Source: Escherichia phage vB_EcoP_PAS59
Sequence record: OQ921332.1
Reading direction: 5' to 3' (one strand)
Length of the DNA: 64,000 nt
The notes under the pieces were generated by a model. That model was not told the origin of the DNA. It saw only the letters and a program-made list of their open reading frames with translations, and made no database searches. The translations under genes and the position numbers were made by a program. Below, in pieces: positions 16,111 to 54,896 of the stretch (position 1 is the first letter of the stretch; every line of letters starts with the position of its first letter).

Positions 16111-16602
16111 ATGAATAATATTGACCCGTCAATAAAAGAAGCTCTTGATTACGACCCTTTGACTGGAGATTTCCGATGGGTTAAAACTTATGGAAAAGGA
16201 CACAAAGGGTCTATAGCTGGTTCTGTAAATACCAATGGGTATTTGAGAATCGTTTATAAAGGTGCTAGATACTACGCTCATCGACTTGCTTACTGGTGGG
16301 ACACTGGATTGCTTCCTGAAGAAGTAGATCACATAGACCGCAACAGGATAAACAACAAAAGAGAGAATCTTAGGGGGACTACTAGATCAGGAAATGGCCT
16401 AAACAAAGTAGCTCAGAGTAATAATTTATCAACCGGAGTGATTGGAGTGACTGTCCATAGAAGGAAAAGTGGCTCTATTGCTTACCGGGCGGTATTTAAA
16501 TCTAAGCACATAGGACTCTTCTCAACCATAGAAGAAGCCTCTAGGGAATATAATAAAGTCAAGGAGACTTACATAAATGACAATCAAAGCTTCATTAATT
16601 GA
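16111..16602 (+). CDS. HNH homing endonuclease with AP2-like DNA-binding domain
   Basis: 'LDYDPLTGDFRW...AHRLAYWW...DHIDRNRINNKRENLR' plus 'GVIGVTVHRRKSGSIAYRA'. Confidence 0.7.
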   Translation: MNNIDPSIKEALDYDPLTGDFRWVKTYGKGHKGSIAGSVNTNGYLRIVYKGARYYAHRLAYWWDTGLLPEEVDHIDRNRINNKRENLRGTTRSGNGLNKVAQSNNLSTGVIGVTVHRRKSGSIAYRAVFKSKHIGLFSTIEEASREYNKVKETYINDNQSFIN

Positions 16603-25914: not shown

Positions 25915-26655
25915 ATGTCTATGATCCCTGAACTGTCTGTATCCCGTAAATCCAACTACGATGTAATCCCTGATGGTGAGTACGAAGCACGTATTGTTCG
26001 TGTTGTAGGTTTGGGTGTTCACAATCGTGACCCTTGGATTGACCCTAAGACCAAAGCAGTTACCCCTAAGAACCCAGCTTTCCGTATGGACTTAGCTTTT
26101 GAGCTGATTGGCGTAGATGCAACAGGGACTGATAATGAAGGCAAACCTCTGGACCCTCGTCCTGCTTGCCAGTTTAAATCTTTCGATGTAAACCCACGAG
26201 CTAAGAACTCTGGTATTCTAAATCTGATTAAAATGATCGACCCAAGTGTTCAAGCACTGAAAGGTGATTTGGGTTGGTTTAAAGATATGCTGTTAGGTCA
26301 GCCTGTTAACATTCTGGTTAACTCTTACACCAATAAAGCTGGTGAGAAGAAAAACTCCATTAAAAGCATCACTCCAATCCCGACTAAATATCGTGACGCG
26401 GTAGGTGCTCCTCGTAGTGAGTTGATCTTCTTCGAACCGTATGCTGAGACTGACGCTAACTTAGCTGCTTATCAAGCAATCTTCCCATTCCAACGTAACC
26501 TCTTGACTCAAGCTAACGATGCTAAGAATATCCCTCTGGCTGGTCGTGAAGTTACTAAAGCTTCTGATACTGAACAGAAAGATGCTACTCCAAGCATCCC
26601 TACCATTAATGAAGAGCCGCAATCAACCTTTGAAGAGGATGATTCGCCTTTCTAA
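25915..26655 (+). CDS. single-stranded DNA-binding protein (putative)
   Basis: Acidic C-terminal tail ending '...EEDDSPF' (as in SSB DDDIPF); sits after a large regulatory region and before a terminator. Confidence 0.5.
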   Translation: MSMIPELSVSRKSNYDVIPDGEYEARIVRVVGLGVHNRDPWIDPKTKAVTPKNPAFRMDLAFELIGVDATGTDNEGKPLDPRPACQFKSFDVNPRAKNSGILNLIKMIDPSVQALKGDLGWFKDMLLGQPVNILVNSYTNKAGEKKNSIKSITPIPTKYRDAVGAPRSELIFFEPYAETDANLAAYQAIFPFQRNLLTQANDAKNIPLAGREVTKASDTEQKDATPSIPTINEEPQSTFEEDDSPF

Positions 26656-26677
26656 GAATCTCTCCTTGTAACAGCTT

Positions 26678-26702
26678 AGCCACCTTCGGGTGGCTTTTTT
26701 CG
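26678..26702 (+). terminator. intrinsic terminator AGCCACC-UUCG-GGUGGCU plus UUUUUU
   Basis: Read directly; after the SSB-like gene. Confidence 0.65.
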
Positions 26703-26713
26703 TTGGAGTTAAA

Positions 26714-27055
26714 ATGGAAAAGCTTCAAAACAATATAGGTTTTTTAATCTTCACAGCTCTGGTTTTCTTTGGTGGTGTCAAGTTTGAGCAATACAGAAGT
26801 GATAGTAATGCTCTTGACCATGAGAAGAAACAGCAAGAGATTGAGGTTGAGAGAGCTAAGGCTGCTGATGAAGTGGCTCAGAAAGTTCTGACTGGTTTAT
26901 CTAACTGGAAGAAGAACACGGAAACTATTTACAAAGAGATGCATTATGAAAAGACTAAGCCAGTTTTTTACAATGTGTGTGCTAGTGATGAGTATGTAGG
27001 ACTTTTCAATGAACGACAGCAACAAGCAGCGGAGGCACTGAAATTAAAGAATTAG
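26714..27055 (+). CDS. i-spanin-like protein (N-terminal TM plus periplasmic coiled coil)
   Basis: 'IGFLIFTALVFFGGV' TM, charged helical remainder; C-terminal 'GLFNERQQQAAEAL' duplicated downstream. Confidence 0.4.
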   Translation: MEKLQNNIGFLIFTALVFFGGVKFEQYRSDSNALDHEKKQQEIEVERAKAADEVAQKVLTGLSNWKKNTETIYKEMHYEKTKPVFYNVCASDEYVGLFNERQQQAAEALKLKN

Positions 27056-27537
27056 TTAAATATCTATCTTACAATGAGGTTTCTGGTCTTCTCTGCTGGA
27101 AACAGTCTGAGGATAAGAGCGCTCAGTGGAATTCAAGATTCGCTGGAAAGGTGGCAGGTTGTAAAGCCACAGATGGCTATACAGTGATTACCTATCAATA
27201 TAAACAGTACAAAGCTCATAGAATTGCTTGGTATATCAAAACTGGAGAGATTCCTGATTTTCAAATAGACCATAAAGATTTAGACAAATCTAATAATTCT
27301 TGGAGCAATCTAAGAAGAGCAACACCTGTCCTTAATAATGCCAACAAAATAGTTCAAAAGAACTCTTTAACTGGAATAAAAGGTGTAGGGTACAGGTCGG
27401 ATATTAACAAATGGAGTGCTCGCATCGGATATCAAAACAAAGTAATTTGGCTTGGTTATCACAGCACTCAAGATGGTGCAGAAAATGCTTACAAAGAAAA
27501 AGCAAAAGAGTTGTTTGGTGATTTTTCTCGCTTCTAG
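27043..27537 (+). CDS. HNH-AP2 homing endonuclease; predicted AUU start
   Basis: Frame open from 27013 with no ATG/GTG/TTG until 27151, yet encodes conserved N-terminus 'IKELVKYLSYNEVSGLLCWK...AHRIAW'; GGAGG 7 nt upstream of ATT 27043. Confidence 0.55.
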   Translation: MKELVKYLSYNEVSGLLCWKQSEDKSAQWNSRFAGKVAGCKATDGYTVITYQYKQYKAHRIAWYIKTGEIPDFQIDHKDLDKSNNSWSNLRRATPVLNNANKIVQKNSLTGIKGVGYRSDINKWSARIGYQNKVIWLGYHSTQDGAENAYKEKAKELFGDFSRF

Positions 27538-27751
27538 TTTGATGGCTTGTTCAACGAGCGACAACAGCAGGCAGCTAATGCCCTTACCAACAAACCTAAA
27601 AGCTGAATGTGATGTAGACCTCCCTTTACTTCAGAGTGGACAGGGAGTAGCACTTGCAACAACACTCGAGTGGTATCAGGACAATTATACAACCTGTGCC
27701 GCTAACCACAACGGTTTGCTTAAAGCTCTCAAGGAGAGAGGAATACAATGA
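27485..27751 (+). CDS. o-spanin-like lipoprotein (putative; start uncertain)
   Basis: 'MLTKKKQKSCLVIFLASSLMAC|STSD' signal/lipobox-like, Pro-containing mature part with further Cys; overlaps HNH 3' end in another frame. Confidence 0.3.
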   Translation: MLTKKKQKSCLVIFLASSLMACSTSDNSRQLMPLPTNLKAECDVDLPLLQSGQGVALATTLEWYQDNYTTCAANHNGLLKALKERGIQ

Positions 27752-27972
27752 TCAGAGCGGAACTTACAATACCAGAAGGTGTTACTCAGTTTCATGCAGT
27801 ATGGGAACACAATAACCAAATCTTTGGTTGTACCTTCAAGTTCTTTATTAATGAAAATGGGTCTTATTGGGCTTATTATGTCCCTGAAGATGATATATGG
27901 TCTCGGATTGGGCATCCAAGTCAACACATTCCTTGCCCTGAAACAGCAATGTATTTATTCTGCGTAGTTTAA
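27748..27972 (+). CDS. hypothetical protein
   Basis: ORF only. Confidence 0.35.
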   Translation: MIRAELTIPEGVTQFHAVWEHNNQIFGCTFKFFINENGSYWAYYVPEDDIWSRIGHPSQHIPCPETAMYLFCVV

Positions 27973-29243: not shown

Positions 29244-30054
29244 TGTAATCTATCCTGAAGTGGCAATTGTGGATGCAGATGTTCTACGATATGAAGTCGG
29301 TGCTCTTACACAAGAGCATCCTTTTCTAGACACAGGTCGTGTTCCAGTTGATTATGGATTCTTGATTGAACGACTTCAACATAAAATAGATGTAATCATT
29401 GCAAGGTCTGGTTGCGAGAAAACAATCTTTTACTTCAGCGAAGGTGGTAATTTTCGGTTTGATATTGCTAAGCAGCAAGGCTATAAAGCTAATCGACCAC
29501 CGGGAGAAAGACCTCACCACTGGCAAAATGTCAGTGATTACATTAAAGAGAATTACGAATACGTAGAAGTTTTTGGGAGAGAGGCGGATGATGCCCTAGC
29601 TGAAAGACAGAGACGTGATAAGAACACTATCATTTGCACCCGTGATAAAGATTTGTTAATCACTCCCGGATGGCATTACCGTTGGGCTTGCGGGGAGAGA
29701 CAGAAAGAAGTACCTCCTCACTATGTATCAGAGGAAGTAGCATGGCAGAACTTCTTCTACCAGATGCTGATCGGGGATAGCACAGATAACATTCCCGGAT
29801 GCGGTGAGAAGGTTGAAATGATGTGGGGTGGCAATCTAGTAATGCGTCGTAAAGGCATTGGTAGTAAGGCTGCAATCAAACTTATTGAGAAGGTATTCGA
29901 TAAGTGGACTCTTTATCATATTATACGAATGGAATACTATAAAAGGTTCGAGGAAGAAGCAGAAGCTAAGATGTTAGAAAATGCTCGATTGCTCTTCGTT
30001 GGACAAGCTGAAGGTGACCTCTTTGATTGGTCATGGTTAAACAAGGAATGGTGA
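29236..30054 (+). CDS. 5'-3' exonuclease / flap endonuclease
   Basis: 'LIGDSTDNIPGCGEKV...GIGSKAAIKLI' H3TH-type motif, acidic clusters. Confidence 0.65.
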   Translation: MSDVIYPEVAIVDADVLRYEVGALTQEHPFLDTGRVPVDYGFLIERLQHKIDVIIARSGCEKTIFYFSEGGNFRFDIAKQQGYKANRPPGERPHHWQNVSDYIKENYEYVEVFGREADDALAERQRRDKNTIICTRDKDLLITPGWHYRWACGERQKEVPPHYVSEEVAWQNFFYQMLIGDSTDNIPGCGEKVEMMWGGNLVMRRKGIGSKAAIKLIEKVFDKWTLYHIIRMEYYKRFEEEAEAKMLENARLLFVGQAEGDLFDWSWLNKEW

Positions 30055-30542
30055 TCTTGGATAGAGAAGAGTTAAAAAGGCTTCTCAAGTATGATCCAAA
30101 TAGTGGTCAGTTTACTTGGAAAGTTAAGAAAGGTAGGAAGAATGTTGGAGATGCGGCTGGATGCTTTTATGGAAAACATAGATACCGCTGCATCAAGTTA
30201 AATCAAATATTGTATCAATCTCATAGACTTGCATACCTTTACATGGAAGGTTACATTCCTGATTGTGTAGACCACATAGACGGAGACCCTTCTAATAACA
30301 AGTGGTGCAATCTAAGAGAAGCAACTTTAAGTCAGAATCAGTGGAACAGAAAGATCTCTATAAACTGCACTTCCGGAATCAAGGGAGTCTCTTTCCATAA
30401 AAGAGCTAATAAGTGGAGAGCTATTATTGGAGTGTCTGGGAAATCTATCCATCTAGGGTATTATGCAACTAAAGAAGAGGCTGAAGAAGCCCTGAGACTG
30501 AAAAGAGAAGACCTACACTTAGGCTTTCATCGTCACAAATAA
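30027..30542 (+). CDS. HNH-AP2 homing endonuclease (start uncertain)
   Basis: 'LKYDPNSGQFTWK...SHRLAYLY...DHIDGDPSNNKWCNLR' plus 'GIKGVSFHKRANKWRA'. Confidence 0.65.
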   Translation: MVMVKQGMVILDREELKRLLKYDPNSGQFTWKVKKGRKNVGDAAGCFYGKHRYRCIKLNQILYQSHRLAYLYMEGYIPDCVDHIDGDPSNNKWCNLREATLSQNQWNRKISINCTSGIKGVSFHKRANKWRAIIGVSGKSIHLGYYATKEEAEEALRLKREDLHLGFHRHK

Positions 30543-31418: not shown

Positions 31419-31922
31419 ATGAATGAAGAGAAGTGGACCCATTTTCTATACTCCTCTGAATCTCCTTCTGGATTTCTCTGGAGGAGTAAACCAGCCCCTT
31501 TTGTAAAAATAGGAAGCGTGGTAGGTACGAAAAACAAGAAAGGTTATTGGGAAATCAACACCAAAAACTCTGGAAGAATTAAAGCTCATCGGTTGGTTTG
31601 GGAGTACCATAATGGACCTATCCCAGAAGGGTTTTTGGTAGACCACATAGATAATAACCTAGACAACAATACAATAGAAAATCTTAGACTTTGTAATGCG
31701 AAGGAAAGTGCTAGGAATACTAGAGGTTGGAGCAGTAAAAGAGATTCTTTACCTAAAGGTATTCATGACAACTCTCATGGAGGAAAGAATCCGGGATACT
31801 ACCAAGCTCGAATTTACATATCAGGTAAATCTTACACGAAATCTTCATACGATATCTTATATTTACACAGATGGCTTAAGAGTAAAAGAGAGGAACATCA
31901 TGGAGAGTTTAAAAAAGATTGA
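31419..31922 (+). CDS. HNH-AP2 homing endonuclease
   Basis: 'SPSGFLWRSK...AHRLVWEY...DHIDNNLDNNTIENLR'. Confidence 0.65.
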   Translation: MNEEKWTHFLYSSESPSGFLWRSKPAPFVKIGSVVGTKNKKGYWEINTKNSGRIKAHRLVWEYHNGPIPEGFLVDHIDNNLDNNTIENLRLCNAKESARNTRGWSSKRDSLPKGIHDNSHGGKNPGYYQARIYISGKSYTKSSYDILYLHRWLKSKREEHHGEFKKD

Positions 31923-54421: not shown

Positions 54422-54896
54422 TGATTATTAGGCTTATTGTGCTTGAAGAGACTCCAAACTTCCTAGCTAAAGCTCTAGCTCCGAACTGTCTGTCCCTCGG
54501 TTTATAGTTCTCTAAACAGAAAAGAACTTGTTCTTTAGTAAGTTTGGAATTAGGATTATCCTCAAGATTCCTTGGTGTTGAGAGTTTTGTTTCATAAGCA
54601 TGTACACAGTTTTCTTGTTGAGTACACCACTCTAGATTCTCAATCCTGTTGTCATCTTTTATTCCATTCTTATGGTTGACATACTCCTTCCCTTCTACTT
54701 TAGGAAGAAAGAGTTCAGCTATGACTCTATGTTCTAGGTAAGATTTCTTCTTGAAGGTTAACACACGATATCCCTTACTATTAATACATCCAGCACGTTG
54801 ACCTTTCTGTTTATTGAATATGTTACTCATAGACCAGAAAAGATGCCCTGTATTCGGGTTATATGTAAAAGCTCCTCTGAAATCTGGCATTGCCAT
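54384..54896 (-). CDS. HNH homing endonuclease with C-terminal HTH
   Basis: 'YVNHKNGIKDDNRIENLEWCTQQEN'; C-terminal 'ALARKFGVSSSTISLIINGTNWKEV'. Confidence 0.65.
   Translation of the reverse strand: MAMPDFRGAFTYNPNTGHLFWSMSNIFNKQKGQRAGCINSKGYRVLTFKKKSYLEHRVIAELFLPKVEGKEYVNHKNGIKDDNRIENLEWCTQQENCVHAYETKLSTPRNLEDNPNSKLTKEQVLFCLENYKPRDRQFGARALARKFGVSSSTISLIINGTNWKEVSYVA

Follow-up and report, generated by a model that had tools for sequence, protein, structure and literature searches.

A free-standing HNH homing-endonuclease gene with HNH_3 and AP2-like domains lies at 26.7-27.8 kb of the Escherichia phage vB_EcoP_PAS59 sequence (OQ921332.1), between two genes predicted to encode the i-spanin and the o-spanin. 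From sequence comparison with related phages, we conclude that it very probably entered DNA in which the two spanin genes overlapped, and that the 550-nt cassette carrying it repairs both of them. The cassette would give the i-spanin a recoded copy of its lost C terminus and the o-spanin a complete signal peptide written in an alternative frame of the HNH gene itself. The 64,000-nt stretch that was analyzed is here called the window; positions are those of this stretch, and features lie on the plus strand unless stated otherwise.

RESULTS

Records and cassette types

The phage is a Gordonclarkvirinae coliphage whose segment at this locus is 97.9% identical to that of vB_EcoP_SU7 (genus Suseptimavirus). 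The HNH segment was found in 8 of the 152 matching phage records (6 distinct phages), and among the matches listed the HNH-free records align in two pieces flanking that segment. HNH-free alleles form the large majority and are spread over three genera; those of UKE3, NC-B, and VTCCBPA_211 were read directly. The sample of HNH-containing (HNH+) alleles consisted of eight alleles in three cassette types, namely A (the window, SU7, Bas86, and Bas87), B (EK010, E20-1, and KM01), and C (a metagenomic 77-kb contig, L011), and a ninth in a fourth background (Logan contig L021, type A'), which has the same layout as types A to C. A literature search found no paper on the locus, and the SU7 and BASEL papers are silent on it.

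The cassette interrupts DNA shared by two predicted spanin genes

The i-spanin coding sequence (CDS) occupies 26714..27055 (113 aa, ending ...DEYVGLFNERQQQAAEALKLKN before the stop), matches the PHROG 1152 family "Rz-like spanin" (E = 3.5e-33), and contains a hydrophobic segment, IGFLIFTALVFFGGV, read from the sequence near the N terminus. The o-spanin CDS (27485..27751, 88 aa) begins MLTKKKQKSCLVIFLASSLMAC and continues into the mature part, CSTSDNSRQLMPLPTNLKAEC...; it matches PHROG 2425, a family whose function is unnamed, and is annotated "O-spanin" in SU7. The census of Kongari et al. 2018 (PMC6139136) places relatives in i-spanin family JH2 and lists ECBP2, phiEco32, NJ01, and KBNP1711 in both i-spanin and o-spanin families, and ECBP2 is among the relatives matched at the locus (91.4%). 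The assignment of the pair as i- and o-spanin is thus a bioinformatic one for this phage group. A first-pass annotation of this DNA, made from the sequence alone, had based it on gene architecture only; the architecture does fit, and the PHROG 1152 match and the families of Kongari et al. now carry the assignment beyond it.

Multiple alignment and junction mapping placed the inserted cassette at 26998..27547 (550 nt), between GAGTATGT and the TGT codon for the o-spanin lipobox cysteine (27548..27550), which is the first host-derived o-spanin codon and marks the right junction. At the left junction, which reads ...GATGAGTATGT, the cassette replaces 5 nt (CAGCT) of the HNH-free alleles, where the junction sequence is ...GATGAGTATGTCAGCTTGTTCAACGAGCGACAACAGCAGG...; the insertion point in the ancestral allele lies 5 nt upstream of the lipobox cysteine codon. 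The insert is 550 nt long in seven alleles and 551 nt in NODE35 and occupies the same site in all eight, and its DNA identity is 69% between types A and B and 76% between types B and C. We also considered microhomology at the right junction, where type B resembles host DNA over ~22 nt and the HNH stop region could have come from duplicated host DNA, and dropped the idea because type C has unrelated sequence there.

HNH-free alleles carry an intact overlapped spanin pair, which identifies the HNH gene as an insertion, as the first-pass annotation had proposed. Its suggested comparison with HNH-free relatives was run here, and such alleles not only exist but are the large majority. Their i-spanin has ...DEYVSLFNERQQQAANALTNKPKS as its C terminus, and their o-spanin, MKRLSQFFTMCVLVMSMSAC/STSDNSRQ..., begins within the i-spanin gene, in the +1 frame, and extends past the i-spanin stop. 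This architecture is therefore "overlapped," with 116 nt shared, rather than an "embedded" Rz/Rz1-like arrangement as first described. Since the insertion falls in shared DNA, it cuts both genes at once, and its position is such that the last ~18 i-spanin codons are lost and the whole o-spanin signal peptide is split from the mature part. The architecture has accordingly changed from "overlapped" to "separated with an intervening gene," and the dual coding that remains in the window is that of the HNH gene with the new signal peptide and of an unused i-spanin relic with the mature o-spanin. Between genera, the overlap is an island of conservation (90.5% identity versus 75% elsewhere), as a result of its dual coding.

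Upstream of the junction, comparison with the UKE3 o-spanin revealed the ancestral o-spanin start and signal-peptide open reading frame (ORF), MKRLSQFFTMCVLVMSM, at 26946..26999 (17 codons). This orphaned ORF is cut off from the lipobox cysteine, and its stop (T/AG) is completed by the first two cassette bases. It still lies behind the old ribosome-binding region and may be translated into a small hydrophobic peptide.

The cassette carries a recoded i-spanin tail

The i-spanin residues up to ...DEYV (to 26997) are host derived, while the final 18 residues and the stop come from the cassette. This new tail, GLFNERQQQAAEALKLKN followed by a stop codon, is encoded in the i-spanin frame at 26999..27055, the first 57 cassette nt. 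The first-pass annotation had noticed the repeated peptide; it placed the end and stop of the upstream copy correctly and its start at 27008, whereas the copy in fact starts at 26999 (GGA = G). The second copy is a relic of the ancestral i-spanin C terminus, FDGLFNERQQQAANALTNKPKS with its stop (27538..27606). It continues the old i-spanin frame directly after the HNH stop TAG (27535-37), as had been read before, and has no start codon. From 27546 on, the relic DNA is identical to HNH-free UKE3 and NC-B; it has been kept because it encodes mature o-spanin residues in the +1 frame.

Aligned over 15 codons, the copies agree at 13/15 residues and 30/45 nt. The earlier observation that they differ mostly at third codon positions holds (12/15 nucleotide differences), and there are ~10.5 synonymous differences over ~10.3 synonymous sites. 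A blastn comparison of the upstream with the downstream copy (word size 4) found no significant DNA similarity, the best stretch being 12/14, so the repeat exists at the peptide level only; any likeness that a dot plot of 26990-27060 against 27540-27610 might have been expected to reveal at the DNA level amounts to chance matches. The peptide repeat is not itself due to chance, since both copies align to the C terminus of HNH-free i-spanins. The PHROG 1152 profile match reaches position 127/127 in UKE3 and only 122/127 in the window. Judged by these comparisons, the upstream copy is a part of the cassette that replaces the i-spanin C terminus, and the downstream copy is ancestral DNA. The idea of a diverged pair thus stands as far as the recoding goes, but the copies are not symmetric, only the upstream one having been recoded. 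The proposal that the i-spanin C terminus was rescued after endonuclease invasion is borne out, in that the upstream copy replaces the tail lost relative to HNH-free alleles.

New tails are present in every type (GLFNERQQQAAEALKLKN in A, SLFNQRQEEAKRVLKSKE in B, KLFNTRQEEAKRVLKSKE in C, and NLFNERQRQATEVLKLKN in A', each followed by a stop), and the pattern LFN.RQ..A..LK.K is kept. Recoding in type B includes switches between serine codon families (TCT versus AGC), and the tail amino acids are unchanged between the window and Bas86 despite their differing HNH bodies. Third codon positions of the ancestral i-spanin were fixed because they are also second positions of the o-spanin, and separation of the genes left them free to change. 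The full synonymous turnover of the tail may reflect long relaxation, destruction of the endonuclease target, or selection against repeat-mediated excision.

A predicted new o-spanin signal peptide is overprinted on the HNH gene

What the first-pass annotation had not described is that the o-spanin also loses its signal peptide through the insertion and regains a complete one from the cassette, written over the 3' end of the HNH gene. It had correctly noted that the o-spanin-like ORF (27485-27751) shares DNA, in another frame, with the HNH 3' end and with the downstream peptide copy; this is the +1 frame. The predicted new lipoprotein signal peptide, MLTKKKQKSCLVIFLASSLMA, is encoded by the last 63 cassette nt (27485..27547), running in that frame across the last 17 HNH codons and the HNH stop. 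In the window it has a net charge of +4, a lysine-rich n-region, a hydrophobic core, a cysteine at position 22, and a serine at +2. Each cassette variant encodes a signal peptide with a start codon, a lysine-rich n-region, a hydrophobic core, and a lipobox that leads in frame into the host cysteine (LMA/C in A, LSA/C in B, LTA/C in C, and LAA/C in A'), and the mature o-spanin ORF is intact in each HNH+ allele. Between the window and Bas86, 0/9.3 synonymous sites have changed in the 17 overlapped codons, compared with a proportion of synonymous differences (pS) of 0.37 in the HNH body, as dual coding predicts.

The HNH C terminus (...AYKEKAKELFGDFSRF), ...ELFGDFSRF, aligns with the family consensus ...AY..A..ELHGEFAR.. 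to the last residues. It follows that the DNA underlying the signal peptide is genuine HNH sequence that has been overprinted and not duplicated host DNA. In all four of the more distant HNH genes that were compared (two window paralogues, L010, and L012), the corresponding +1 frame contains stops. A 38-nt piece of the cassette (27489-27526) is 92% identical to the HNH 3' end of Klebsiella phage KP27 and its relatives, and outside the HNH+ phages it is the only stretch of the cassette to match anything in the phage collection. The KP27 HNH gene (L019, 901-949), which stands in an unrelated genomic context, gives TTKKQKNCSVIF in its +1 frame, and this frame continues into the beginning of a DprA-like gene that follows and overlaps the HNH stop by 11 nt. 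The C-terminal motif E-K-A-K-E-L-F-G-D-F, when written in A/T-rich codons, would thus intrinsically yield a lysine-rich and then hydrophobic +1 peptide. That a signal-peptide-like +1 frame is unique to the cassette proved only partly true, as KP27-type HNH genes have the motif too, and for this reason we prefer exaptation over a pure de novo origin; no more than a start codon and the final residues leading to the lipobox would have had to be added.

The arrangement has complicated annotation. For Bas86 (L005) and Bas87 (L006), at 1615-2507, GenBank joins the i-spanin across the HNH gene and starts the o-spanin at an internal ATG (2479), and EK010, E20-1, and KM01 annotate only a 57-aa internal o-spanin ORF. 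The joined i-spanin CDS and the internal o-spanin starts appear to be misannotations.

The HNH gene is under purifying selection and probably starts at a noncanonical codon

The HNH ORF extends over 27043..27537 (164 aa from ATT), with its catalytic histidine codon at 27271-73. The protein matches Pfam HNH_3 with an E value of 1.1e-13, which passes the cutoff, and PHROG 99 with an E value of 5.6e-57; its AP2 match, at 24.9 bits, is below the Pfam cutoff of 33.3 bits. Residues H77, N85, and N89 are invariant in the alignment, and the ORF is intact in 9/9 alleles. The ratio of nonsynonymous to synonymous substitution rates (dN/dS) is 0.154 for the window versus Bas86, 0.03 for EK010 versus KM01, and ~0.1-0.14 between types. 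The HNH gene is under purifying selection (dN/dS 0.03-0.15).

GenBank relatives (e.g., SU7) start the HNH gene at the GTG at 27151, giving 128 aa; overall, the GenBank records use three differing HNH starts, which are probably truncated. The frame is open from 27013 and contains no ATG, GTG, or TTG before GTG 27151. When residues are numbered from the ATT, residue 2 is where homology with PHROG 99 and with relatives sets in, ~36 codons ahead of the GTG. Codons upstream of GTG 27151 are under purifying selection like the rest of the gene. A putative translation start at 27031..27045 comprises GGAGG (27031-35), a 7-nt spacer, and ATT (27043-45). This GGAGG-N7-ATT arrangement is kept in SU7, Bas86, Bas87, and L021, in the last of which the GTG equivalent is GTC, and type B has GAGGG-N7-ATC at the aligned codon. 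We infer from these sequences that ATT 27043 is the only plausible HNH start and that translation begins at a weak AUU or AUC codon, which would fit low expression of a potentially toxic enzyme. The putative Shine-Dalgarno sequence of the HNH gene is part of the DNA for the new i-spanin tail, which physically interlocks the tail, the HNH gene, and the signal peptide.

A programmed frameshift or read-through from the i-spanin was also considered as a source of HNH translation and rejected, as no X XXY YYZ heptamer occurs at the i-spanin end in types A and B; in type C the HNH gene is in frame after a TAG stop, and in the other types it is not. Scans for a sigma-70 promoter and a terminator in the cassette gave counts no higher than in shuffled controls. 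The one convincing terminator in the scans is a strong hairpin at 26678-26700 (AGCCACCTTCGGGTGGCT, then a T-run), which lies between the upstream gene (246 aa) and the i-spanin start and is conserved in all aligned relatives.

A scan of IMG/VR with the HNH protein returned one distant homologue only. Further HNH_3-type paralogues or fragments occur in the window at 30027-30542, at about 16144-16600, at 31512-31688, and, on the minus strand, at 54633-54869. By tblastn they are 30-40% identical to the HNH protein of the spanin locus. The genome holds several free-standing homing endonuclease genes.

Similar cassettes occur in different backbones

Presence or absence of the cassette is polymorphic at one precise site among close relatives, and the phylogeny of the insert disagrees with that of its flanks. 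The inserts of Bas86 and Bas87 are 100% identical, and their flanks only 91-95%. The insert of KM01 is 95.6% identical to that of EK010, with an upstream flank only 82% identical, while the KM01 flanks are 98-99% identical to HNH-free VTCCBPA_211. SU7 flanks match HNH-free UKE3 at 96.5-100%. The window combines a Bas86-like backbone (98-100%) with an SU7-like cassette (99.3%, compared with 90.8% to Bas86), and 250 nt of DNA to the right of the cassette are 100% identical to HNH-free NC-B. Identical or near-identical cassettes in different backbones with near-identical HNH-free siblings indicate probable homing.

In EK010 (L003, ~1900-2450), the DNA upstream of the cassette is Suseptimavirus-like (95-96% to the window) and the DNA downstream is Kuravirus-like, the mature o-spanin being 99% identical to VTCCBPA_211 and 78% to the window. 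The backbone thus switches at the cassette, and a recombination breakpoint coincides with it. Co-conversion could produce such a mosaic, which also fits the report of Barth et al. 2023 that nuclease genes are associated with exchange boundaries.

Within the cassette, the window and Bas86 differ unevenly. They are ~99-100% identical for ~600 nt on either side of it, and the N-terminal half of the HNH gene (27100-27300) is strongly diverged (33-44 identities per 50 nt; ATDGYTVITYQYKQ in the window versus TKAGYVTLNFQRKT in Bas86). This divergence suggests either exchange among cassette variants or fast evolution of a DNA-recognition segment.

DISCUSSION

Alternative explanations

The insert could in principle be a self-splicing group I intron that contains an HNH ORF, with splicing restoring the original i-spanin and the overlapped o-spanin. 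The GenBank "Rz-like spanin" of Bas86 and Bas87 is indeed a joined CDS of two pieces, the second of which extends to the relic stop. Both genes could be rebuilt, since neither the old o-spanin start nor the relic tail has been lost, and the window junctions happen to read U/...G/. We nevertheless regard an intron as exceedingly unlikely. No Rfam intron family was found over 26500-27900 even at E <= 10, the 5' junction has no excess RNA structure (z = 0.37), and a ribozyme core would have no space in a 550-nt insert of which all but ~10 nt codes for protein, partly in two frames. The terminal G is absent from type B, which ends in T or C, and from type C, and type C also lacks the CAGCT needed to restore the ancestral reading. 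Splicing would give no reason for a tail and an in-frame signal peptide to be conserved in types A, B, and C and in L021, and the BASEL paper mentions neither an intron nor a spanin. An intein was likewise rejected, as the i-spanin frame stops at 27053-55 and the HNH gene is in a different frame in types A and B. The opposite direction of change, in which the separated, HNH-containing arrangement is ancestral and the overlapped form arose by deletion, has some precedent, in that Kongari et al. (PMC6139136) left the direction open for T5 and Shivani and deletion of the endonuclease gene is a known part of the life cycle of such elements. Here it seems hardly credible. By far the most relatives, in three genera, have the overlapped form, the ancestral tail is covered by the PHROG 1152 profile, and four different HNH+ backbones each have near-identical siblings that are HNH-free. 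The relic tail and the orphan signal-peptide ORF look like leftovers of an overlapped ancestor; a precise deletion would need to recreate a 116-nt dual-coding overlap.

Two further explanations concern function. One holds that the HNH gene is a dead or domesticated remnant that no longer homes and persists as the source of a signal peptide and a tail. Host genes do depend on both cassette ends, the cassette is rare (6 phages among the 152 matching records), and type A has no canonical start codon for the full-length protein, for which annotators picked differing, truncated starts. This explanation is nonetheless improbable, being disfavored by the evidence of selection and mobility: the ORF is unbroken in all nine alleles with its catalytic residues unchanged, dN/dS stays at 0.03-0.15 throughout the body of the gene, the codons before the GTG included, GGAGG-N7-ATT is conserved, and identical cassettes occur in different backbones. 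Individual alleles may still be dead. The other holds that the insertion inactivated the spanins, that the tail and the "signal peptide" are fortuitous, and that HNH+ phages lyse without spanin function. Lambda lacking spanins does lyse in shaken cultures free of divalent cations, and the SU7 paper is silent on the locus. The maintenance of start codon, charge, hydrophobic core, and lipobox in all variants examined argues against fortuity, as do the preservation of LFN.RQ..A..LK.K in the tail without an amino acid change between the window and Bas86 and the intact mature o-spanin ORF in every HNH+ allele, and we consider this explanation very unlikely.

Several observations weigh against invasion of the overlap by a homing cassette that repairs both genes, or against parts of this reading. 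No canonical HNH start exists upstream of GTG 27151, and if the AUU start is wrong, the HNH protein is N-terminally truncated and possibly inactive. Presence and absence with identical flanks could result from ordinary recombination without endonuclease drive. On the o-spanin side, the type A lipobox LMAC is off the strict consensus [LVI][ASTVI][GAS]C at position -2, although those of B, C, and A' fit, and the Shine-Dalgarno sequence before the window o-spanin ATG is weak (GATGGTG). For the tail, the recoding involves only ~10 sites, with a P of about 0.06 against saturation and with causes that are inseparable, and the excess may simply follow from release from the o-spanin frame.

Comparison with known systems

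An endonuclease gene between spanin genes is known from T5-like phages. Kongari et al. 2018 (PMC6139136) reported that the T5 spanins overlap by 70 bp, that Shivani and phiR201 have a GIY-YIG gene between them, and that after any such event the o-spanin must still have a lipoylation signal. We checked this case directly by comparing phiR2-01 (L017, 23137-24588, minus strand) with Stitch (L018). As in the window, a free-standing homing endonuclease gene turns an overlapped i-/o-spanin pair into a separated pair, its 5' end overlaps the new i-spanin stop region and its 3' end the new o-spanin start, a relic of the old i-spanin tail stands in frame after the endonuclease stop, and the cassette is present in a minority of relatives (19/445 records). 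The T5-like element differs in being a GIY-YIG rather than an HNH gene and in belonging to another phage family. It is inserted near the o-spanin start, and the signal peptide changes there in its first 4 residues only (MHKI for VFNW), whereas in the window the cut is at the lipobox cysteine and all 21 residues of a signal peptide are encoded by overprinting of the endonuclease gene. The new T5-like i-spanin tail, KDEHKNN before the stop, bears no relation to its predecessor, and the insert lies between the copies of an exact 12-nt direct repeat, CTTGGAGTACTG; in the window, an 18-residue homologous tail is resupplied and there is no repeat at the DNA level. The locus described here is thus a new, independent, and more extreme variant of the T5-like arrangement. 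T5-like phages and Gordonclarkvirinae also agree in having the spanin pair close to a deoxynucleoside monophosphate (dNMP) kinase gene and not adjacent to the holin and endolysin genes.

Other split or overlapping genes offer partial parallels. According to Crona et al. 2011 (PMC3045599), the free-standing homing endonuclease gene mobE splits nrdA of Aeromonas phage Aeh1, the C- and N-terminal tails derived from the insertion are needed for function, and no RNA or protein splicing is involved, all of which resembles the window. One gene there becomes two interacting polypeptides, whereas in the window two overlapping genes are separated. Moreover, unlike in Aeh1, one of the new "tails" in the window is a targeting signal in an alternative frame of the endonuclease gene. 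The HNH-type endonuclease at T4 mobA/gene 60 reportedly travels with an adjacent sequence that alters the host gene and protects its carrier; gene 60 relies on translational bypassing of a 50-nt gap, whereas the present locus neither needs nor shows a recoding event, and no slippery site was found there. Lambda Rz/Rz1 and the overlapped spanins of phiEco32-like phages likewise pair an inner-membrane type II protein with an outer-membrane lipoprotein in two frames, with a complex formed by C-terminal interactions; in contrast to these systems, the shared DNA has been pulled apart in the window.

Proposed mechanism and implications

Homing endonucleases favor conserved sequences such as this dual-coding overlap. 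In a mixed infection, the HNH enzyme would cut or nick the intact, conserved overlap of an HNH-free relative, and recombinational repair would then copy the cassette into that allele. The HNH+ allele would be immune because its target is split and the left half recoded. We propose that AUU (AUC in type B), preceded by a good Shine-Dalgarno sequence in the new tail, serves as the start codon for low-level translation of the HNH protein, and that the signal peptide could arise easily, since the +1 frame of the conserved HNH C-terminal motif is lysine rich and then hydrophobic.

Whether the cassette goes further and is an evolved repair kit, with a selected tail, an exapted and overprinted signal peptide, a throttled AUU/AUC start, and three interlocked genes, is a more tentative matter, and we judge the chances of this to be slightly under even. 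If it is true, the kit would let a homing endonuclease colonize a dual-coding region, and the recoded tail would keep i-spanin function while destroying the element's own target and removing repeat homology prone to excision. None of the three genes could then be lost without harm to the others.

For annotation, the arrangement matters because the o-spanin has been missed or misstarted in EK010, E20-1, KM01, Bas86, and Bas87. For phage evolution, the locus would be a natural example of a selfish endonuclease invading DNA read in two frames with neither gene killed, and of how a highly constrained, conserved dual-coding overlap can be an attractive endonuclease target. It would also represent a complete lipoprotein signal peptide made by overprinting on the end of an unrelated gene, with a plausible preadaptation in a distant relative. 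As a convergent counterpart of the T5-like GIY-YIG case, it suggests that spanin overlaps are recurrent landing sites for homing endonucleases and that these elements drive the switch from "overlapped" to "separated" spanin genes.

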